Made by a program: the position numbers and the translations under genes. Under the pieces are notes generated by a model, which was not told the origin of the DNA, searched no databases, and saw nothing but the letters and a program-made list of their open reading frames with translations. Source: Styela clava (taxonomy: Eukaryota). Taken from it: a stretch of 64,000 nucleotides of DNA. The stretch lies in NCBI RefSeq assembly GCF_964204865.1, contig NC_135252.1, positions 12,710,001-12,774,000 on the forward strand. Reading direction: 5' to 3'. Below, in pieces: positions 34,601 to 52,600 of the stretch (the first letter of the stretch is position 1; every line of letters begins with the position of its first letter).

Positions 34601-37600
34601 CATAAAGTACAGACTGTTGTAAAACAATATATACTACAAAAAATCATTTTGTACAAGATCTTCATGACAGAAGATTTTTCCAATATGAAAAAATGATAAA
34701 ATACGTATGCAAATGCAGCTGTTCGTTTAATTCAAGTTGGGGTTGACTATAAAACAATTAACAGTAAAATGTACGTAAATAGGATGTTATATTTTCCACC
34801 TATTGTGAAAAAGCCATTATTACATTTTCAGGCTTGAACACAAAATAAAATAGTTTTAAATTAAATTTTGAAAATCTTAATTGACAGATAGTAAACCCTA
34901 ACCAATAAGTGTTTCTACATGTTTCTAGCATCAGCAGTTTCAAGAACATTCAAATTTTAATTACTGTATGTAACAACCGAATGGTAAGACATAAACCATA
35001 TTTTTCCGGCTAATAAGCTAATTTTTTTTTACCCATTTTTTTGCCCGTCTGCTCATTAGCTGTCTGGACTTACTTTTTTATTACGAGGGAGGGGGGATTT
35101 TGGCTTATCATGGCTGTGAACCAGAAAAGTTGAATCAGCGCAGATTTTTGAATTTAAAACCCCATCAATGGCAAGCGATAGGGAGAAGTGACGGAATTTA
35201 CGGAAGTTTATCGATGTCCGTGCACTGAAGCTGACAAAAGCAGTCAGAATATATAATCAAAACTAGTCATCTGCACCTTTGTGAGCGGACTCTGATTTCA
35301 TTGCACAATTTAAAACGCTTCTAAATAGCAAAATAGAAATGATAAAAATAGAGCGTGCATTGCTGCTTGACTGATGAAACTGTCAAATAGATAAACAAAT
35401 AACAAAATATTTTTCTGCATTTGTTCATTGGGAATATGGGATAGTCATAATAAACCTCATTTTTGGTGCTAAAACTCGCCTCATTCATCAGTTTGCTTGT
35501 TAGCCGGAAAATAGGGTATATGCTGAAATCTTCATGCAAACTTTTCATACAAACTATAACAATCATCACATAAAAAACTGAGCTAATGAACGCATGAAAA
35601 TATACACACCAATACAATCAGGTACATCAATATTCCATTCACCAACACCATCATTATTTGAATCAACACATTCTATTGTATCTATTCCACCAGTTAATTT
35701 CATTGTATCAGTACATTCAAATGTACATAGAGAATCATAGATATTTATATTTGAGCAGTTAAAAGTTGTTCCAGAAGAGAAGTTAGACATAGTAAATGAT
35801 GAACAAAGTATTTCTGAAAAATGAATAGATTATTACCTGAACTCAACTTGACAAGATTTTGATCAAAGAATTATTTACGGTAAGTTGCATATATTATTGA
35901 AAGTGTATATCATCTTAGCCTATCCATATCTGTATCATTAATTTGAGACATCCAGCAACTTGAGCATACCTCAGTTCAGCATAATGTAAATTGATTCATC
36001 TGTAATTTGAAGCCAATTCAAATGAAGAACCTGGCCTATCTTTTTCATCAAATGAAGTTTTTTTTGTCAAAAAACAAAATGCACACCATTTGTGCTATAA
36101 TTACTATGCTATTTATACTTGGTCCAAGATTGATGTTACAAATATAAAGAACCAAGCAAAAAATAAACACATACATTACCTCATGTGAAGGATTTTCTTA
36201 AATGCTGATGTCACCATTTGGCAGCATTGGCACCACTTGCACCATGCATGAATACCACTTGCATAATATCTCCCTACTAGTGAAATGTTTATCGCATTTC
36301 TATAATAAGTACTACATGTACAACTTTTACATCACATACCAAAAATTATGCTTGCACCATGTATAGGCCCATTGCACCATTTGAACCATTTATACCTTTT
36401 GCACCACATGTACCATGTCTACAACTTTTACCACTTGTCCCATTTTAGCAACATGTATACACTTGCACCACATATACCTCTTGTACATGAAAATCTTGTG
36501 CAATGCAAAGAAGAATTTCACTTCTGTGTATGCCACTTTCATAATTTCACCAAATGTACCACTTGTGCCATCTAGTATCATGTATGCCTTGCCACAATTT
36601 GTGAAAATTGTGTCATGTTTACCCTCCGCACCATATATACGATGAGCATTATGTGTACTGAATATATCAGATGCACCACATGTACTCTTTGCACCATTTG
36701 TACCACATGTACAACTTTAAACACTTCTATCAAATCTAGAAATGGTACCACTCACACAACGTGAAACATATGTACATACTAGTTACACCACATGTGCCAT
36801 CTTCACCATTTCTATTGTGTAAATATTGTACCATGTGTACACCTATTTGGACTTTGAGCACTTGAAATATGCAAATCATTTTGTAAGTGCCACAAGTTGG
36901 TAAATCCGGATATAGATATGAGTGGGGACAAAATGGTCATACCTGAAATAAGCTAGCAAAATACAAAACTCAACTAGTTAACACAATTTTTTGTGAGTGG
37001 AACAATTTTCCAATTTAATATATAGGGCTGTCACGTAATTCGGAAGTATAGCGATTTTCATTAGTTTATTTATCTTTTGAGCATGAAAGAGAAGATGATA
37101 ATTATATGACAGTTTATCTATTATTTAAATACTTTACCAGTACAATTTGATGCAGCTGAACTCCATTCTCCAACTTCATCATTATTATTATCTTCACAAA
37201 CAACTGTCTCAGATCCAGTACCATCCAAAGTCATTCCTTCATTACAACTCACAGTACAAGATGAATCGATTATATTTTCATTTGAACAACTTGCTATTGT
37301 ATTGCTTGTTATGGATTTATTCATATATGAACAGATGATATCTAAAACAGAATGACATGGTTACATTAAAGCAATATGTAATCAGGCCGCATTAATTATG
37401 AAGTGTTCAATATATCTTACATATATAATGAACAATGGTGATATACCAGTTTTGGGGTAAAATATTCAATGTATATCAGACAACCTATATAAATGTCGTC
37501 AATCATCTTGCAATAAAGCTATGTATTGATTTCACCTTACTTATAACAACAAAAGTACAGCATAAACATATTCAGAAGAAAAAAAAACTAACCAATACAA

Positions 37601-40600
37601 TCCGGTATCTGAGCATTCCACTCTCCTATTCCATCATCATCAGAATCTTCACATTTTATAACACTGGTTTCTACATTTAATTTCTTCTTATTAGGACAAC
37701 TGAATGTACATTCAGAATCAAATGTATTTGTTCCAGTACAATCAAAAACAGTTTCAGGTGCTAGAGTTGATGGATCCAAAGTTGGACAGGTGATGACTGT
37801 GGACCAAACAATTTTAGAAATTGTCAATGGTAAAGTGGAAAACACAAGATGATCAACCAATTGTTATTCAAGATATTTTTCTACGTTGACAATGTTTGCA
37901 ACACAAACCAAGTACTGTTAATTATAAATCAAAATCACCATTAGTCGAATACAAAATTGAAACAGCTAATAATGTACATTACATGATCAGAGTTGTAGTC
38001 TTTATATGTTCTTATTCTGTTAAATATAAAGATTTATAAGTTTTGACTTCACAATCACATACCTTTGCAACTAGCTGCAGTTTCATTCCATTCTCCTTCT
38101 CCGTCACCATCAATGTCTTCACAAATAACAGATCCTGATCCCGTACTTCCATCCAATGTCATTCCTTCAGGACAACTCATATCACAATTTGAATTCTTTA
38201 CAAATCCATTTGTACATGTTACTTGTGTTTCATTTGTTACAATAGTGGATAGATCGGGGCAGAGAATATCTACGAAACAGAAACGTGACTAATAGAACGC
38301 ACATACTATAGCAGTCAATTGTCCCAAATGTCCTAATTTTATCTACATAAATCTTGTTTACACACCAATACAATCAGGAACATCAATATTCCATTCACCA
38401 ACACCATCATCATTTGAATCAACACATTCTATTGTATCCATCCCACCAGTTAATTTCATTGTATCGATACATTCAAATGTACACACAGAACCATAGATAT
38501 TTGTATCTGTGCAGTCAAATGTTGTTCCAGCGGTAAAATTAGTCAAAGTAAAAGCTGGACAAAGTATTTCTGAAAAAAAATGTAGAGTTTATTACCTGAA
38601 CTCAACTTCACAAGAAGATATTGATCAAAGATTTATGTAAGTTGCACAAAATTATTGATATATATCATCTTAGCCTATCAACATCTGCCTCATAAATTTG
38701 AGACATACAGCATCTTGAGTGCACTTCAACACAGTGTAAATGTATGCACTTGTGTCTTAAAGTGAATTCAAATGAAGCCCCTGGCCCAACTGCTTCATTA
38801 TATGAAGTTTTTGTAACAAAATGCACACCGTTTGGACTATGAATACTATTTATTTATATTTGGTCCCAGATTGACTTTACAAATACACCGAACCAAGCAA
38901 AAAATAGACAAACATTACCTCATGTGAATAATTTTCTTAATTGCTAATGTGAAAAATGGTAGCATTGGCACCATGCATACGACTTGCAAAATATCTCCCT
39001 ACTAGTGAAATGTTTTAGCCCATTTCTAAACTAAGTACTACATGTACATACAGCCTTCATATCCCATACCGTAAATTGTGCTTGCACCATGTACACACCT
39101 CTTGTACCATTCCTACGTCTTGCACCACATGTATCATGTCTACAACTTTTACCACTTGTGGTTGTAACACTTCAGCAACATGTATACACTTGTAGAGCAT
39201 ATACTACTTGATGTGCAAAGAAATATTTCACTTCTGATGTGCATGCCACTTTTATTATTACACCAAATGTACTACTTGTGCCATCTATCAACCCTATAGT
39301 AACCCTGCCCGGCCTCAATTTGTGGAAAATTGTGTCATTTTCAACGTCTGAATCATATATATGTGAATTATGTGTACCACATACCGTATATCAGATGCAC
39401 CACATATACTATTTGCACCATTTGTAACACATGCACAACTTTCCACACTTCTAGCAAATCTAGCCCTAATAACACCTATACATGAATCATGTGTTACTCC
39501 ACATGTACCATTTTCATCATTCCCACTGTGTACATCTTGTACATCTATCTGGAATTCCAAATACATGCATTCAAATCATATTGCAAGTGTCACAAGTTGG
39601 TCAATCCGGATATAGTTATACTGGTAAGTGGGAACAAAATGGTCATACCTGGAATAGGCTGGCACAACACAAAGCTCAACTGGTTTACACAATTTTTTTG
39701 TGAGTGGAACAATTTTCCAATTTAACTGCTGCCACTAAATTTGAGAGCATAGCAATTTTCTTTAGTTTGTATTCATGTTTTGAGCATGAAGGAAAAGTTG
39801 AGAATTGTATTACAATATATCTATTATTTATTTCAAATACTTTACCAGTACAATCAGAAGCAGCTGAACTCCACTCTCCAACCTCATCATTATTATTATC
39901 TTCACAGACAACTGTCTCAGATCCAGTACCATCCAATGTCATGCCTTCATTACAACTTACAGTACAAGATGAATCGATTATATTTTCATTTGAACAACTT
40001 GCTATTGTATCGCTTGATATGGATTTATTTATATATGGACAGATGATATCTAATATAAAATTAATGGCATGGTTACATTTAGGCAATATGTAATCAGGCC
40101 TCATTAATTATGGCTTGGTTAATATATCCCACATATGGTGATGAACCAGTTTTGGAGTAAAAATATTTACTGTATGTCAGATAACCTATATTAATGTCGG
40201 CAATCATGTTGCAATAAAGCTATGTATAGATTATACCAGGGGTGGGCACACCGCGGCTCGCCAGACTTTTTGTGCGGCTCTTCTCGCTAACATAAATTAT
40301 TATCCAAATTTTAACTAAGAAAAAAACTTTAATGTAAACTCTTTTAATTTAATAAGAGTCGTAAAGAACTTTTCGTCAATGATTAGGACAAATTATGTTT
40401 TAGTATGAAAATCGCTGTGGCGTTGAATTTTGAATTTAAGTCAATCAAGTCAGCAAATCTTTGTCTCAACGGTCAATGTTTATTGATATGTCGGCAAAAT
40501 TGCAGCTTGATTGCGGTTAGTTAGTCTAAGTTACTGTGCGATATGTCCTCAATTAAAAAACGAACGTACAAAGATAAAAACAGAGTTGTCAAGTCAGAAT

Positions 40601-43600
40601 GGGAAGAACGTACGGATTTACCAGTCAGGAGAATAAACCTTTGTGCTAAATCTGTCATAAGCTACTAAGTCAGAATAAAGTCAGCAATGTTAAACGGCAC
40701 CATGAAACGAATCATGAAAACTTCATACGAGACTACCCTCGTAAATCAGCTATAAGGAAACACAAATTAAATGAGCTCAAATTGTGCGTATATTTGAGTA
40801 TAGCTGCCTTATTCATCTATTTATTGTTATTAGACTCTCGTGTGAATTTCTTTTCTGTTCATGGTATTTTGATAATATTAATGAATTCACAAATTCTGCG
40901 GCTCTTTTAAAGTTCTGACTTGCAGCATGCGGCTCTTATACTGAAAAATTGTGCCCACCCCTGGATTATACCATACTTATAACAACAAAAGTACTGTATA
41001 AACATATTCAGAAGAAAAGAAAACTAACCAATACAATCTGGTATCTGACCATTCCACTCTCCTGTTCCATCATCATCAGAATCTTCACATTTTATAACAC
41101 CGGTTTCAACATTTAATTTCTTCTTATCAGGACAACTGAATGTACATTCAGAATCGAAAGTATTTGTTCCAGTACAATCAAAAACAGTTTCAGGTGCTAG
41201 AGTTGATGGATCCAAAGTTGGACAAGTGATGACTGTGGACCAAAAATATTTAGAAATTGTCAATGGTAAAGTGGAAAACACAAGAGGATCAACCAACTGT
41301 TAATCAAGAAATTATTTTACGTTGACAATGTTTGAAACACAAACCAAGTACGGGTAAATATAAATCAAAATCACCATTAGTCAAATAGAAGATTGAAACA
41401 GCTAATAATGTACATTACATGATCAGAGTTGTTGTCTTTAGATGTTCTTATTCTGTTAAATATAAAGATTTATTAGTTTTGACTTCACAATGACATACCT
41501 TTGCAACTAGCTGCAGTTTCATTCCATTCTCCCTCTCCATCACCATCATTATCTTCACAAATAACAGATCCAGATCCTGTTCTTTCATCCAATGTCATTC
41601 CTTCAGGACAACTCATATCACAATTTGAATTTTTAATAAACCCATTTGTACATGTTACTTGTGTTTTATTTGTTACAATAGTAGATAGATCGGGGCAGAG
41701 AATATCTACGAAACAGAAATGTGAATAATAGAACGCACATACTATAGCAGTCAATTGTCCCAAGATTTCCTGATTTTTTCTAAAGAAATCTTGTATACTC
41801 ACCAATACAATCAGGAACATCAATATTCCATTCACCTACACCATCATCATTTGAATCAACACATTCTATTGTATCCATTCCACCAGTTAATTTCATTGTA
41901 TCGATACATTCAAATGTACACACAGAACCATAAATATTTATATCTGTGCAGTCAAATGTTGTTCCAACAGTAAAATTAGTCATAGTAAAAGCTGGACAAA
42001 GTATTTCTGAAAAAAATGTAGAGATTATGACCTGAATTCAACTTTACAAGAAGATATTGATCAAAGATTTATGTAAGTTGCACAAAATTATTGATATATA
42101 TCATCTTAGCCTATCAACATCTGCATCATAAATTTGAGACATACAGCATCTTGATTGCACTTCAACACAATGTAATTGTATTCATTTGTGACTTAGAGTG
42201 AATCCAAATGAAGCCCCAGCCCGGATGCTTCATGATATGAAGTTTTTGTAACAAAATGCACATCGTTTGCGCTATGAATAATATTTTATTTATATTTCGT
42301 CCCGGATTGACTACAAAAACACCAAACTAAGCAAAAAATAGACAGCCTTCATATCCTATACCGTAAATTGGGCTTGCACCATGTACACACCTCTTGTACC
42401 ATTGCTACGTCTTGCACCACATGTATCATATTCATCTCTACAACTTTTACCACCTGTGGTTGTAACACTTTAGCAACATGTATACACTTGCAGCGCATAT
42501 ACTTCTTGATGTGCAAAGAAATATTTCACTTTTGATGTGCATGCCACTTTTATTATAACACCAAATGTACTATTTGTGCCATAGTAACCCCCTCCCGGCC
42601 ACAATTGGTGGATAATTGTGTCATTTTCAACGTCTGAACCATATATATGATGTGCATTATGTGTACCACATATATCAAATGCACCACATATATACTATTT
42701 GCACCATTTGTAACACATGCACAACTTTCCACACTTCTAGCAATTCTAGCCCTAATACCACCTATACATGAATCATGTGTTACTCCACATGTACCATTTT
42801 CATCATTCCCACTGTGTACATCTTGTACCATGTGTACATCTATCTGGACTTCCAAATACATGCATTCAAATCATATTGCAAGTGTCACAAGTTGGTCAAT
42901 CCGGATATAGTTATACCGGTAAGCAGGAACAAAATGGTCATATCTGGAATCGGCTAGCACAATATAAAGCTCAACTGGTTTACACAATTTTTTTGTGAGT
43001 GGAACAATTTTCCAATTTAACTGCTGCCACTAAATTTGAAAGCATAGCGACTCTCTTCAGTTTGTATTTATGTTTTAAGCATGAAAGAAAAGTAGAGAAT
43101 TGTATTACAATATATCTACTATTTATTTTAAGTACTTTACCAGTACAATTTGATGCAGCTGAACTCCATTCACCAATCTCATCATCATTATTATCTTGAC
43201 AAACAACTGTCTCAGATCCAGTACCATCCAATGTCATGCCTTCATTACAACTCACAGTACAAGATGAATCGATTATGTTTTCATTTGAACAACTTGCTAT
43301 TGTATCGCTTGATATTGATTTGTTTAAATATGGACAAATGATATCTGAGATAAAATTAATGGCATGGTTACATCAAAGCAATATGTTATCAGCCCTCATT
43401 AATTATAAGTTGGTGGTAAACCAATGGTGATAAACCAGTTTTGAGGTAAAACCTTCACTGTATATCAGATAACCTATATAAATGTCGGCAATCACGTTGC
43501 AATGAGGCTATGTACTGATTTTACCTTGTTACTTATAACAACAAAAGTACAGCATAAACATATTCAAAAGAAGAAAAAACTGACCAATACAATCCGGTAT

Positions 43601-46600
43601 CTGAGCATTCCACTCTCCTATTCCATCATCATCAGAATCTTCACATTTTATAACACTGGTTTCTACATTTAATTTCTTCTTATCAGGACAACTGAATGTA
43701 CATTCAGAATCAAATGTATTTGTTCCAGTACAATCAAAAACAGTTTCAGGTGCTAGAGTTGAAGGATCCAAAGTTGGACAAGTGATGACTGTAAATCGAA
43801 AAAAAAAAGAAATATGTCAATAGTGAAGTGGAAAACACAAAAAGATCAACCAACTGTAAATCTATGACAATTTTCTATGTATCAGTTGATAAGGTTCACA
43901 ATGTTTGAAACAACAAACCGTATTAGCTAAATAAAAATTAGAAGCACCATTAGTCAAATGGTACATTACATGATCAGAGTTGTAGCCTTTATAGGCTATG
44001 TTTGTAATGAGTGAGAAATATAGTACCTTGATATAAGGCTTTATTCAACTTAAATTTAAAGCACTCTTAGAATGAATCTAAAATAATATAACACAAGCAA
44101 ATGTTATTAAACAAGAAAACAAATACGTATCGAATTGCTGATGCTAACAGTAAGCGGCTCAATAGTTAAATGAATAAAGTCGAAAGAATTAACACACTAC
44201 ATCTACAGCACAGCAATGATTGGTGTCTGATTTAAAACGCCACAGCAATCATCGCTTGACTGCAGCTGTATAAACAAATAGATACATTGAGTTGCATTTC
44301 CAAGTTATCACATTCACCGCCACTTTAGAGATTTAGTCTGTCTACGGTTCGGCGTTCCCTGATTGATCTCCGTAGAACTGGAGGCGATGGAGATCTAGAG
44401 ACAATATTATTTTCAACAATATCTTCTTGCGTTTGAGTTTTATTGTTTCCTTGATTGATAGATGGAGACATAGGTTGAATCGAAGACTCGTCTCTAACGT
44501 GCAATGGTGTTTCATGGTTGATATTGTCTGTCCCTTGCCTATTCATCGAAATTTCGTAACCGACAGGGGCCAGATGTTTTGAGGCTACAGTTGTTTCTCT
44601 GCCATCTGGAAATCGAACATGAGCATATTGTGGATTTGCTTCCAGAAGCTCGACTTCATCTACTAAAGGTTCGGTTTTCGACTTCCTGACATATCTTTTC
44701 AAAAGCACTGGTCCCGGCGTTGACATCCAGGATGGAATAGAACATCCAGACGTAGATCTTCTGGAGAATTTGAAAACTCGCTCATGAGGAGTCTCATTGG
44801 TGGCTGTACACAATAACGACCGTATGGAATGCAAAACATCAGGCAAAACTTCATGCCACAATTGAACAGGAAGACGTTTCGATTTCAGCGCCAACTTCAC
44901 CCCATTCCATATCGTGCCATTAAAACGTTCAACCTGTCCATTTCCTGCAGGATTATATGGTGTGGTGCGACTTGTTGCAATACCTTTGTCATTGAGAAAA
45001 GAGCGAAGTTCTCGACTCATGAAAGCAGAACCTCTGTCTGAATGTATAAAAGCAGGCATTCCAAATGTAGTGAATAGTTGCGTGAGACATTTAATGACAC
45101 TTGCTGTGGAAACATCTGGACATGGGAATGCAAACGGAAATCTCGAAAATTCATCGACTACGTACAGAAAGTATCGATTATTATTGTTTGACGGTAGGGG
45201 TCCTTTAATGTCTATATTGAGACGTTCAAATGCCTGTGTAGCTTTGATAAGGTGCCCGGTGTCAGGGTTATGAAATCGCGGCTTGCATTCACAACAAACA
45301 GGACATGTTGAAATAACTTTTCGAATGTCATCCATCGAATATGGCAAATTCCTGACTTGAATAAAGTGAGACATTCTCGTAATTCCTGGGTGACACAGAG
45401 CGTCATGAAGTTTATACAAAAGATGATTTTCGGGATCTTGTACAGTTGCGCACGATATTTTTGAAAGTGCATCAGAGGGAATATTTTCTTGCCCAACGAT
45501 AACGAATGTCAAAACTATAGCAGCAGAGTTCTAGTCGCCATCGCATGATTTTATCATTTTTAATCTTTGTTCTGTGATTTCGATTGAACATAAATGATAC
45601 GGATCTCAATGATGGCCTTTGCTTCCTTCTCTATTGAAGGGTGTTTGAGTTCTGGACCTTGTAGCATGCGAGAGAAAAAAGCCACTTTAGGGTTGCAGCC
45701 AATGCTACATCAGAGGCATCTGTTTCTACTTCAAAAGGTAAAGTTTCATCCACAGCTATAACGACAGCAGATTCTACGAGTCGCTTCAATTCGTGAAACG
45801 CATGAATTGCCTGGTCGTCGAGAGGGAAAGTTTTCGCAGATGCTAGTGGTCTGATAGTATCAGAAAACTTTGGTATCCACTTTGAGTAGTACGAGAAAAA
45901 CCCAAGACAACGCTTTAAAGCGGAAACTGAGGTAGGAATCGGCAAACGCCGCAAAGGTTCTAGTCTCCCAGGATCCGGACGTATTTGGCCTTCCTCAATC
46001 TCGTAACCTAGAATCTGAAGTTTTCTGGTCGAAAATATGCTTTTGTTTTCGTTCAATTTTAGATTTCGTCGTTTAGCGGCTTCTAGAAACTTCTGCAAGT
46101 TGATATCATGGTCTTGTTGAGTATGCCCACAAATGGTAATGTTATCGAAATACGCGAAAACACCGGTCAGGTTTTCTTCTTTTACCAGGTTCATCATTGC
46201 CCTCTGGAAGCAGGCCACACCATTTGTGACTCCAAACGGTAAACGAGTGAACTGGAACAGAGCACCCGCAGCTTCGAAAGCAGTATATTTCTGGTCTTCC
46301 TTTTCAAGTGGAACCTGATGGTATGCACTTTTTAAATCCACTGTGCTATACACACGATAATGAGCAATTTCGTTGATTATATCGCTCATATTAGGTAAAG
46401 GAAACGCGTCTAACTGAGTAAATTTATTGATGGTCTGTGAATAATCGATTACAACCCTTCGTTTGCCATTTTCACCCTTTACGACAACAACTTGAGCTCT
46501 CCACGGAGATCTGCTAGGCTTTACAATTCCTTCCTGTAACAAACGGTTGACCTCCATTTCAATAAACTTTCTGTCATCTTTGGAATACCAAAGAGACTTT

Positions 46601-49600
46601 GTAGCAATAGGATGGCAGTCAGCAGTCAGATTTTTGAATGGTTCTGGTGGCAAACTTTTGAAAGTTGAAAAGCCACATACAGACATTGGAGGTCGATCGC
46701 CGCCGTAATTATAAGTTACACTTTGATGTTGTCCTTGAAAGTCTATTCCAAGTAAAAAGTCACAACATAGATCATCCATTACTCTCAATATGAATTTTCG
46801 ATAGTGTCGGCCCTGATATTCAATATCAGCTGCTGTGCAACCTTTTATAGGCATGGAACACGCCAGAGAAGCCATTGCTACCTTGTCCTTAACTGTGTCC
46901 CTTTTGATTGGGAGGTTACACCTTTCTATGAGACGAGGGTGTATGAAACTCTGACTACTGCAACTATCAAAAAGTGCGCGTACTTTGTGTCCTTCAATAT
47001 GAATCACAGACGACGACCCTCTCAATGATTTCGGGGTATTGTCAAAAGCCATTCCTAATATATACGAGTTAGAACATGCAGTGACTTTGTCAGGATTTTG
47101 TGGGTTGAAAACGGTTCCTCTGCAGACTTTTATGAAATGTCCTTTTTTATGACATTTGAAACAAAACACATTTCGGGCTGGACATTTTGAACGAGGATGT
47201 TTCTTTCCGCCACAGAAAAAGCACGCGGAATTTGCAGTAGCAGATATTTTCTCGATATCACACGATGTCTCATCGTTTTGAGTTTCACTGTTTTGAGCAG
47301 CCGCAGACACAGTAGAAGGATCGGATACTCGATAAGCTTCAGCATTCTTAATTGCTACTTCTAAGCTTCTGGCTTGATCGTATGTCGTATTAAGATCAAG
47401 GTGTTTGTTTTCCAACAAACGCTGTCGTATCCATGTGGAGTTTAACCCCCGGATAAAAGCGTCTCGGACATAAGCATCTCTGTTTTGAACAGCAGATACA
47501 GCTTTGAAATTACAATGTTTGCTTAACGATTTCAATGCTTGCATGTATTCGTCTACATTTTCAGATGCTTGTTGGTTCCTGGTTGCCAGAACATGCCGAG
47601 AATAAACTTCATTGAGAGGTTTGACAAACATTGTTTTCAGAATCTCAATCGCAGTATCGTACGATTCTGCCTCCTCAATGTTTTGGAATATACGAGGAGA
47701 TATGAAATTCACCAGTACACCAAGTTTATCAAGGCCTTCAGACGGCAAGGCGTTTAGAAAATTATCAAAAGTCTTCTTCCAGTGCAGCCACTCACAGGAT
47801 GCTTCACTAGAGTTAGGATCTGCCTCCAGTCTCTCTGGTCTCAGAACCTTGTCCATGCTTCTACCAGAATACTCTTGTGAAATGATTTAAGTTGAATAAA
47901 TTGTAATGAATGAGAAATATAGTACCTTGATATAAGGCTTTATTCAACTTAAATTTAAAGCACTCTTAGAATGAATCTAAAATAATATAACACAAGCAAA
48001 TGTTATTAAACAAGAAAACAAATACGTATCGAATTGCTGATGCTAACAGTAAGCGGCTCAATAGTTAAATGAATAAAGTCGAAAGAATTAACACACTACA
48101 TCTACAGCACAGCAATGATTGGTGTCTGATTTAAAACGCCACAGCAATCATCGCTTGACTGTAGCTGTATAAACAAATAGATACATTGAGTTGCATTTCC
48201 AAGTTATCACAATGTTCTTATTCTGTTAAATATAAAGATTTATTAGTTTTGACTTCACAATCACATACCTTTGCAACTAGCTGCAGTTTCATTCCATTCT
48301 CCCTCTCCATCACCATCATTATCTTCACAAATAACAGATCCAGATCCTGTACTGTCATCCAATGTCATTCCTTCAGGACAACTCATATCACAATTTGATT
48401 TTTTAATAAATCCATTTGTACATGTCACTTGTGTTTCATTCGTTACAATAGTAGAGAGATCAGGGCAGAGAATATCTACAAAACAGAAATGTGAACCATA
48501 GAATGTGCTTACTATAGAACAGTCAATTGTTTCAAGATGTCCTAATTTTTTCCAAGTAAATTTTGTATACTCACCAAAACAATCAGGCACTTCAATATTC
48601 CATTCACCAACACCATCATCATTTGAATCAACACATTCTATTGTATCCATTTCACCAGTTAATTTCATTGTATCAGTACATTCAAATGTACATGCAGAAC
48701 CATAGATATTTATATTTGTGCAGTCAAATGTTGTTCCAGAAGTAAAATTAGAAATAGTGAAAGATGGACAGAGTATATCTGAAAAATGAATAGTTCATTA
48801 CCTGAACTTAACTTGGCAAGAAGGTTTCAACCAAAGATTTGAGTCAGTTGCACAAACGGTTTATGTATATCATCTTAGCCTATCAACATCTTCTTGTACC
48901 TCTATGGCAGTCAACATATTTAGTGATCTTCAATAAAATGTAAATGCATTTATATGTGCTCTGAAGCCAATTCAAATGAAGCACAAACACATAGTACAAA
49001 GAAAAGAATCACACAAATTAGCTCATTTAAATAATTTTCAGAAATACTGTTGCTAACATCGAAGCATTGCATATATCACCTCAATTGTTCAATGTGCTCA
49101 TACAACATGTATTGCTTTTACACCCATCCATTTGCATCATGTGCCGGCTTAGAACCATATATACCCTTGTACTACATGTACCTTGTTTAAAACTTCTATC
49201 TATTATACTAAATGCACTAATTGGCAACATACAACTTGCACCACTTCTACCTCCTGTACATCAACTGCTTGTGGAATGCAAACAAATGTTCCACGTTTGC
49301 CATGTGTGCCAAAAATGTACTTTTTGTACCATTTATCTACTTCAGGCCTGCACAACATACGGCCCGCAGGCCGCATGTGGCCCGCTAGATACTTCTGTGC
49401 GGCCCGAGGGTGATTTGGAAACACGCCACTTCTCAGGTCTAACAATCGGAGCCGGCATTGTTATGCAAGCGCGCCGCTACTCTGATCATATCCGAAATCG
49501 TGTGATTTATATTTTGCACTAGTTTCAATAAATATCGAACATTGTGTGAAATTAGTGTGCCCTTCTCGACCCCTATATTTCGTCGCTCGACCCTCGTTTG

Positions 49601-52600
49601 GGAAACCCTGATTTAGATATCTCAGTATTCAGACTGAATCAAGCTTAAAACAATATCGGTATACAATCTTACACCCATTAGTGCATATTAGCAACCTTTA
49701 ATAACCCCATTATTTTTTACTAGAGGTTTATGAAACTGAAGTATCTTTTTTGTGACAAAGCTTGAGGCCCGCCGGGCCTTCAGATTTATGCTTGCGGCCC
49801 TCGTGGTAATTTGAGTTGTGCAGGCCTGATCTACTTCCTAATATTTGGACCATTTGTACAATATGTGTCTTGTATGCCCAGCCATCATTTGTGAAAAATG
49901 TATCATGTTTATTGCAATTAGCATATATGCAATGTGTATTAGAATATTAGATCACCCCATGAATCATGTGGACCACGTTTACTATTTGCACTAATTGTAC
50001 CACATGCACAACTTTCAACACTTCATTTCCCCTTGCCGCATGCATCGCAATTGATTGATTCAAATTGGCATATGTTGCCCCAAATTGATATAAGTGGGTA
50101 CAGATTGGTAATGTTTAAATTGATTGAACTGATTGTTTATAAAAGGTATGTAATATACGGTAATAGTTATCGCAGGTTGGTACAAATTGATTGATATGGG
50201 TATGAGTCCACCGCACAAATTAGCCCAATTGCCTGTCAGGTATATTCAGGCTGTAAGACATTGAGGTTTGAACAGATTGTCCATGTTGACAAAAGTTTTT
50301 TGAGCATGCCCATACAGCCGTACATGAGGTAGTACGGATGATCTTAATGATACGATAAAAAAACACGATACACACGATAAAAAAAGTACAAGTAGTACAT
50401 GTCATTTTTAAGCTGGCAGGTAAAATACCAAATTCCTTATTATAGTGTGAAAATATTGTACATCATCATTGTACATCAGGTTAAATTAGTGAATATATAT
50501 TGATTTTAATGGGTTTTATCATGATTCGAGCATGAACAAGTAAGAGAAATTGTTTATTGTATTCTAGTTAATTGCATTGCATTGTATTACCAGTACAATT
50601 TGATGCAGCTGAACTCCATTCCCCGAAGTCATCATTATTATTATCTTCACAAACAACTGTCTCAGATCCAGCACCGTCCAATGTCATGCCTTCATTACAA
50701 CTCACAGTACAAGATGAATCGATTATATTTTCATTAGAACAACTTGCTATTGTATTGCTTGATATAGAATCATTTAAATATGAACAGGTGATATCTAAAA
50801 TAAAGAAATGGCATGGTGACATTGGAGCAATATATTTTTATTCTCATTAATTACAAAGTGTTTGATACCGAAAACATAAATGGTGTTCAATGATGATGAA
50901 CTGGTTCTGAATGAAATATTCAATGTATATTAGAAAACCTACATTCACCAGCGAACTATGCTTTAAAATAGCTCAAATGGTAAATTTCATGCTTCTGCAT
51001 TAGTTTCATTAATTTTGTCTCATCGATAAAATCAAGTTTTGTACATACATATCCAGAAAGAAACGAACCAATACAGTCCGGAATTTGAGCATTCCACTCT
51101 CCTACTCCATCATCATCAAAATCTTCACATTTTATAACACCGGTTTCAACATTTAATTTCTTCTTATCAGGACAACTGAATGTACATTCAGAATCAAATG
51201 TATTTGTTCCAGTGCAATCAAAAACAGTGTCAGGTGCTAGAGTTGATGGATCCAAAGTTGGACAAGTGATGACTGTAAAACAGAATAACGTAGTTACCGG
51301 TATTCTTTGATTCATTGGTCGAAGATAGAAGTATTCGGAAAACGATATTGGATAAGCCAGCTGTTCCCGAACTTTTTCTTATTGTGGAACAAAATTATCA
51401 GGTAAAAAACTTACGGTGCACTTACACAAAAAAAATGCTGCTTATAAATGAAAATCAATTTTGTGATCGTTAAAGTGTACTTTATGCCTTTTAAAGTTTT
51501 GTAAATATTTAGGCCTAATGTCAACTCTTCTTTCTTATCTCTGCCCGATTTTTCCTTTAAAATACTGAAATAATCACTTATAATCGCTAAACTCGGTTCA
51601 GCAGATAAATTGCAGCAAGTAGTGTCTACTGTATTGTTATGTAACAATAGGGGCAGACATTACGAAACCAAAAGAAATGTGATAGAAAGATAAAATGCAT
51701 TTATTGATTCGTGTACACAGCATTTAAAATAAGAAACCATAAATGATTTATTATAAATACAATATGTAAAATATTCAATCATATTTTAGTTATTTTTACA
51801 ATTCTAATAATTTTCATGACCCACTTAGTAACTCGCTGTGTCGTGGTGCACTTTTTGGGAATTGCTGGGTTAGCCAGTTGTTATTCCTGCTAATTATTAG
51901 GTTATTCTGGAATAATTAGTTTGAATCTCATAAGATATGATCAAGTAAGATAAGTTTGCCTAACCACACGCTGTTCCAAGGTAAGATAAATGAATAAATA
52001 TATTTTACTAAATATTAGAGCTGAAGCAATATCACACTAGACAAAAAATAGTTGAAAGGATTCAAAAGATACAACAATTGGAAAGCTTTGGAATAATGAC
52101 CAGCAACAACAAGAAATGATTTACATAATCCTGATAGCATTCACTACCTTTACAACTAGCTGCAGATTCATTCCATTCTCCTTCCCCATCGCCATCATTA
52201 TCTTCACAAATAACAGATCCAGATCCTGTACTGTCATCCAATGTCATTCCTCCAGGACAACTCATATCACAATTTGAATTCTTTACAAATCCATTTGTAC
52301 ATGTCGCTTGTGTTCCATTTGTTACAATAGTAGAGAGATCAGGACATAGAACATCTAGAATACAGAGAAGTGGATTCATGAATCTACTTACTGTTGCACA
52401 GTAAATTGTGTCAAGATGCCGTAACAATAATCAATTCATTAAAGATGATACATAAATAAATCTATGATACTGTAATCTTACCAATACAATCAGGTACATC
52501 AATATTCCATTCACCAACACCATCATCATTTGAATCAACACATTCTATTGTGTCCAATCCACCAGTTAATTTCATCGTATCAATACATTCAAAAGTACAA

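Follow-up and report, generated by a model that had tools for sequence, protein, structure and literature searches.

A primer site complementary to its own LTR suggests self-priming in a chromodomain-less clade of animal Gypsy retrotransposons

Main finding

The 64-kb stretch of Styela clava DNA that we examined (the window) contains a young Ty3/Gypsy LTR retrotransposon with no tRNA-type primer site. In its place lies a 16-nt sequence exactly complementary to a segment of the element's own 5′ LTR. This feature is real and conserved across the clade to which the element belongs. It probably reflects self-priming of the Tf1 kind, in which the 5′ end of the element's own RNA would act as primer in a clade of animal elements that lacks a chromodomain. 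That the window element works like Tf1 overall appears very likely from the sequence.

Structure of the element

The element is of the Gypsy type, measures 4,209 bp and lies on the minus strand of the window (Table 1). Its TG...CA LTRs and the 5-bp target duplication on both sides are Ty3/Gypsy hallmarks, and the domain order gag-PR-RT-RH-IN, found in the window element and in full-length relatives, is that of Gypsy. The best PDB match of a full-length relative was Ty3, and the best protein match was a Styela clava protein (82% over residues 1-260). Several sister copies have a single unbroken frame of 1,213 codons. An LTR search of the 377-Mb genome gave at least 42 matches, and 13 of the loci returned carried the primer site. 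In one sister copy, L003 (G000:C6:24248481-24248558), an inverted piece of its own LTR sits inside gag, ~85 bp beyond the point where the matched 5′ region ends.

Table 1. Positions of the element, its primer-site features and the host intron in the window.
Feature	Positions	Strand	Remark
5′ LTR, TG...CA, 310 bp	47902..48211	-	2 mismatches vs 3′ LTR
3′ LTR, 310 bp	44003..44312	-	2 mismatches vs 5′ LTR
Target-site duplication AACAT, upstream copy	48212..48216	-	Flanks 5′ LTR
Target-site duplication AACAT, downstream copy	43998..44002	-	Flanks 3′ LTR
One-base spacer A, LTR end to primer site	47901	-	
Primer-binding position TTTATTCAACTTAAAT, without TGG	47885..47900	-	
Predicted self-primer (16-nt LTR arm complementary to primer site)	47939..47954	-	
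AATAAA closing the LTR arm	47944-47939	-	
Initiator-like core within LTR arm	47951-47946	-	
Predicted 5-bp hairpin GCCTT/AAGGT, from first base past arm	47924..47938	-	Folding and shuffling
TATA-like TTATATTA	47983..47990	-	28 nt before arm; not conserved in relatives
gag-protease-RT and start of RNase H, 741 aa	45631..47856	-	Window copy broken inside RNase H
Integrase frame: H2C2 zinc finger, rve core	44325..45530	-	No chromodomain detected
Purine-rich tract ahead of 3′ LTR, likely PPT	44313..44326	-	
Arm copy in 3′ LTR	44055-44040	-	No partner downstream
Host intron GT...AG of Sushi-repeat gene, element in sense orientation	43789..48268	-	Paralogous introns without insertion

Primer site of the window copy

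The earlier note had claimed that no tRNA-type site follows the 5′ LTR, that the sequence found there is instead the exact complement of an LTR segment 38 nt away, and that this segment contains AATAAA. All three claims were borne out on the letters. No TGG was found within 35 nt of the 5′ LTR, the first one lying at 47866, 36 nt past the LTR. TTTATTCAACTTAAAT (47900-47885) is the exact 16-nt reverse complement of LTR positions 47954-47939, the gap between the two arms is 38 nt, and AATAAA closes the LTR arm. None of 20,000 dinucleotide shuffles of the LTR reached 16 nt (mean best 5.8, maximum 13). The 75-nt RNA 47954-47880 folded at z = -6.3, with 0 of 200 shuffles equally stable, and the matching stretch of the 3′ LTR did not fold (z = +0.5). 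The match was perfect in 12 of the 13 copies of the window family; the remaining copy had a single change in the arm.

Relatives within the same genome

A gag search with 40 fetched stretches yielded five further families in the same genome, with gag 39-60% identical to that of the window family. No two of the six families share a primer site, and each site is matched perfectly over 14-16 nt by the LTR of its own family (14 nt in L061; 15 nt each in L069, L077, L078 and L079). The primer-site sequences vary among the families and the register is constant. Since each of the six sites follows its own LTR, one host RNA cannot prime all six.

As outgroups we used 32 Gypsy loci of the same genome, with RT 18-35% identical. 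The LTR end could be placed in 23 of these, and all 23 had TGG within ~12 nt of the LTR. None of the 23 had an anchored helix, the complement being at most 9 nt. The TGG primer site that characterizes Mag and other tRNA-primed Gypsy clades is absent from the window element. In two of the tRNA-primed outgroups, L104 and L117, tRNA-like sequence continues past the TGG site; the stretch in L104 is ~25 nt, longer than the usual primer site.

Conservation, register and covariation of the helix

A metagenome scan returned 79 loci, of which five were dropped because they had no gag start or no upstream DNA. The remaining 74 and 41 own loci gave a set of 115 loci, which fell into 39 families at 80% DNA identity. 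An anchored helix of at least 11 bp was present in 70 of the 115 loci and in 30 of the 39 families, as compared with 1 of 575 shuffles; the families are related, and their counts do not represent independent events. Among the nine families without an 11-bp helix, two had 9 bp in the same register, one lay outside the clade by RT (26%), and no helix was found in six single-copy families.

The register was nearly invariant. The helix began past one spacer base in 67 of the 70 loci (62 directly and 5 with a CACA-shifted count), and the other three were copies changed at the helix base. The spacer base was A in 28 of 29 families and G in one. The 3′ base of the arm pairs two bases past the CA of the LTR, which is where the 3′ end of a primer must sit to copy the LTR end.

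Pairing was then compared position by position, counted from the 3′ end of the arm, in 29 families, one of the 30 having been dropped for short upstream DNA. Each family's own pairs were 100% Watson-Crick at positions 1-12 and 93% at position 13; the helices were located via the longest complement, which makes pairing at positions 1-11 a given, so that the comparison with shuffles, the register and positions 12-13 carry the weight. Pairs formed across families were Watson-Crick in 41%, 34% and 32% at positions 5, 7 and 12, respectively, where 3-4 pair types are in use. The compensatory covariation between primer site and LTR segment that the earlier note had proposed to look for in relatives is thus present, and the complementarity, whose loss in relatives it had named as contrary evidence, has been kept in most families.

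The pairing fell to background by position 17. Single folds had made it seem plausible that the helix continues upstream of the arm; this was rejected, as own and cross-family duplexes were alike (permutation p = 0.24). Such an end, with no upstream extension, is what would be expected for the 5′ end of an RNA.

Most variants within families were one-sided. In one copy, L133, the same change was found in both LTR arms together with the mirror change in the primer site, and this copy is 98.3-98.9% identical to its sister copies. The changes in L133, a single event, fit copying of the primer into the primer site.

Hairpin next to the helix

Of 30 families, 23 had GCC and 4 had ACC directly after the arm. 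A hairpin of 3-10 bp starting from the first base past the arm was predicted in 24 of the 29 families, with loops of 4 to ~30 nt and, at position 4, four pair types beyond the common one. When the first five and the last four bases were fixed and the rest shuffled in 300 rounds, a mean of 7.1 families and a maximum of 15 gave such a hairpin.

Proposed priming mechanism

In the mechanism that we propose, transcription would start at 47954 or a few bases before it, and the first 13-16 nt of the RNA would fold onto 47900-47885. The RT/RNase H of the element would, by analogy with Tf1, cut between 47939 and 47938, which is the predicted junction of the primer helix and the hairpin. From the new 3′-OH, synthesis would copy the spacer A and then the final 37 nt of the LTR, and the resulting strong-stop DNA of ~38 nt would jump to the 3′ R. 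The hairpin may serve to mark the cut or to assist this jump. The same helix would hide AATAAA in the 5′ LTR only, likely as a second benefit; the arm of the 3′ LTR has no downstream partner, so that AATAAA would be free there. The prediction is exact to the base, with an RNA start near 47954, a cut after 47939 and ~38 nt of strong-stop DNA, and the window family is young and multi-copy, so that natural RNA can be examined.

The element may prime itself from an RNA end other than the capped 5′ end, although we regard this as unlikely. Transcription would then start further upstream, or the arm would be supplied by the 3′ R copy or by another packaged RNA molecule, and the one thing that matters would be the 3′ cut ahead of the hairpin. 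The register, the covariation and the hairpin indeed fix just the 3′ end of the primer, and the arm is present in both LTRs. The TATA argument for a start at the arm, made in the earlier note, fails: TTATATTA is present 28 nt before the arm, but this is not general, as a TATA 40-18 nt before the arm was found in 5 of 29 families and such motifs were evenly spread over 120 nt. No conserved TATA was found, which suits an upstream start. On the other hand, pairing stops at 13-16 bp without extending upstream, and the arm itself holds an initiator-like core. In 17 of 29 families, primer position 11 is the A of a YNAKT match, against a mean of 0.9 elsewhere; the INR motif is quoted as TCAKTY in PMC3601003. 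This A falls at position 11, whereas pairing is kept to position 13, and the motif may be inherited sequence only. Nevertheless, the initiator-like core, together with the abrupt loss of pairing at 13-16 bp, would support a start at the arm better than the TATA does. As for the 3′ R as primer, its use would presumably remove sequence that the strong-stop DNA needs for the jump.

It is less likely still that the helix is purely regulatory, acting in poly(A) hiding in the 5′ LTR, packaging or end-to-end pairing, with some other primer in use. In 22 of 29 families the arm contains the hexamer A(A/T)TAAA, which by itself could select for pairing, and folding is seen for the 5′ stretch but not for its 3′ counterpart. 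Hiding of AATAAA alone, however, leaves unexplained both the fixed register, as masking needs no single-base register at the LTR end, and the arms without a hexamer. The helix persists in the 7 of 29 families without a full poly(A) hexamer in the arm, of which three have it only in or across the loop and four in neither. The place of the primer is also taken up by the helix, and no alternative site was found.

A host RNA, either a tRNA half or the ascidian spliced leader, is a very improbable primer, with the LTR match as a secondary matter. The Ciona leader (Table 1 of PMC1488885) equals the arm at 12 of 16 positions, and our Rfam search for tRNAs scored only 63 of 33,143 candidates. Against this, there is no TGG near the LTR, the six different sites each follow their own LTR, and the clade also occurs in non-ascidian hosts. 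The 15-nt arm had 77 genomic matches, and of the 20 that we scanned outside previously known LTR copies, none fell in a tRNA gene and about half were further LTR copies. The spliced leader was rejected as primer, as a leader-like tandem array of the host matches the arm at 11 of 16 positions and the six sites track the LTRs, not the leader. We also rejected as a primer source a conserved TTT-N-AG in the arm, which resembles a splice acceptor, as the pairing crosses it to position 13.

A chance inverted repeat in AT-rich DNA (the genome is ~34% GC, and a reversed 15-mer control was found 35 times in it) or a one-off template switch in the window copy is refuted by the shuffles of the LTR, the 12 perfect copies and the helix shared by 30 families.

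Phylogeny and distribution of the clade

Within the genome, RT identity was 44-100% in the clade and fell to 31-34% for everything else. A quick IQ-TREE analysis covered 49 RT rows, with outgroups solely from the same genome, 18 of the 39 families lacking a usable RT, and Tf1, sushi and Cigr-1 not represented. The 21 clade rows (18 with and 3 without the helix) lay on one side of a branch with length 1.13 and SH-aLRT of 100.

The domain search of the window integrase detected neither a chromodomain nor SH3_Tf2-1. A chromodomain was likewise absent in 10 of 10 full-length relatives (E 0.1) and from the Pfam annotations of the 120 integrase matches listed. The earlier description of the lineage as non-chromovirus-like thus agrees with the missing chromodomain, and is a statement about domains, not about a tree with Tf1/sushi.

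Named protein matches, which are protein hits and not primer sites, came from cnidarians, echinoderms, crustaceans, insects, a cephalopod, a rotifer, a nematode, a ray and Styela. No relatives were found in a viral-contig scan or in a metagenome scan with a single protein. We consider it an evenly balanced proposition that an old Gypsy clade, animal-wide in the sense of spanning ascidians, cnidarians, echinoderms, arthropods, a cephalopod, a rotifer, a nematode and a ray, gained self-priming independently of Tf1/sushi. In such a clade, ~16 nt would combine the roles of initiator, primer and poly(A) signal; a hairpin stacked on the primer helix, not a pretzel, would set the cut.

Comparison with known systems

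The comparisons in this section draw on excerpts of the cited papers. Tf1 and Tf2 of Schizosaccharomyces pombe, Tj1, Tosmo1-3 and Tcry1, which are Tf1/sushi chromoviruses, have no tRNA site, and the position after the LTR is complementary to an LTR segment (PMC7175516, PMC4600332, PMC10085805). The window element resembles them in both respects, with its primer position complementary to its own 5′ LTR. The paired stretch in Tf1 is the first 11 nt, and the RNase H cut falls between bases 11 and 12 (PMC7175516). Unlike those 11 nt, the helix described here has 13-16 bp and usually ends in a poly(A) hexamer. The clade also differs from Tf1/sushi in the distance from the arm to the LTR end, only 23-71 nt across families, and in the lack of a chromodomain or SH3_Tf2-1 domain.

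Tf1 is further described as forming a three-duplex "pretzel" in its 5′ UTR (PMC10085805). In our 29 families, neither of its additional duplexes was detected (p = 0.09-0.71 for loop with leader and 0.81-0.99 for LTR end with loop), a comparison that very short or bulged duplexes would escape, and the clade instead shows a local hairpin at the predicted cut. A Tf1-type cut in this clade is, in consequence, an extrapolation. As two defining features of Tf1/sushi, the chromodomain and the pretzel, were looked for and not found, the window element should not be filed in that group.

Tf1/sushi, Tcn1 and TAR are the groups named as self-primed in PMC6317226. For the plant Tcn1 chromoviruses and the TAR lineage (Houba, Osr-1) of Ty1/copia, self-priming was predicted there from a complement of at least 10 nt between the LTR and the primer position. 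Counted in this way, between the 5′ LTR and a primer position 0-5 nt past it, the window element has 16 nt. Tcn1 is a plant chromovirus related to Tf1/sushi and TAR a plant copia lineage, whereas the present clade is an animal Gypsy lineage without a chromodomain. As far as these sources go, Tf1 is the element in which self-priming has been demonstrated experimentally, with predictions extending to related chromoviruses and to a single copia lineage of plants; here we deduce it from sequence.

The dictyostelid Skipper and the fungal GalEa also lack a TGG primer site, and unconventional priming has been proposed for them (PMC5006619, PMC6934838). According to the excerpts, Skipper has no complement in its LTR and GalEa has a hairpin inside the internal region, whereas the partner of the primer site in the window element is in the LTR.

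Cigr-1 is reportedly a compact single-ORF element, and the window element is similar to the size that Cigr-1 is said to have. The Cigr-1 Gypsy clade was first described from the ascidian Ciona intestinalis and also occurs in Biomphalaria, Octopus and annelids (PMC6238403, PMC8556966). Kinship with this clade, which we compared by description, is only a lead.

In the portions of the literature available to us, we came across no animal Gypsy clade outside Tf1/sushi for which self-priming had been reported; Repbase, GyDB, and the Levin, Butler and Cigr-1 papers may already note such elements. If the reading of self-priming is true, a large animal clade with a simpler RNA fold would point to repeated loss of the tRNA primer, and some of the LTR elements described as having no primer site would be accounted for. 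As an example, 361 of 1512 elements were left without an assigned primer site in PMC13524379, in a group different from the present clade. Self-primed elements would presumably also escape silencing by tRNA fragments directed at the primer site.

Host gene and other genomic features

The host gene around the element is long, runs on the minus strand of the window (11000-58000) and consists of repeated exon-intron units, of ~2-3.4 kb in the 35-56 kb region. Of nine exon frames tested, six gave weak Sushi/CCP matches, none of which reached the Pfam cut-off. The repeated units of the gene also hold recurrent degenerate arrays with a 9-nt period (36281-36753, 39103-39468, 42395-42754 and 49150-50023). 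A segment of ~760 bp (40221-40979) bounded by 30-nt inverted arms, 80% complementary, is possibly a non-autonomous DNA transposon.

Elsewhere in the genome, a tandem array close in sequence to the Ciona spliced leader (G000:C3:24847563-24923046), with ~47 copies among the matches listed, is likely a leader-RNA gene array of the host. A dense cluster of tRNA genes occupies G000:C2:15882721-15990539. On the small contigs C154, C191, C216, C296 and C318, equal-scoring tRNA genes recur every 44-46 kb, a spacing that suggests a large tandem unit.
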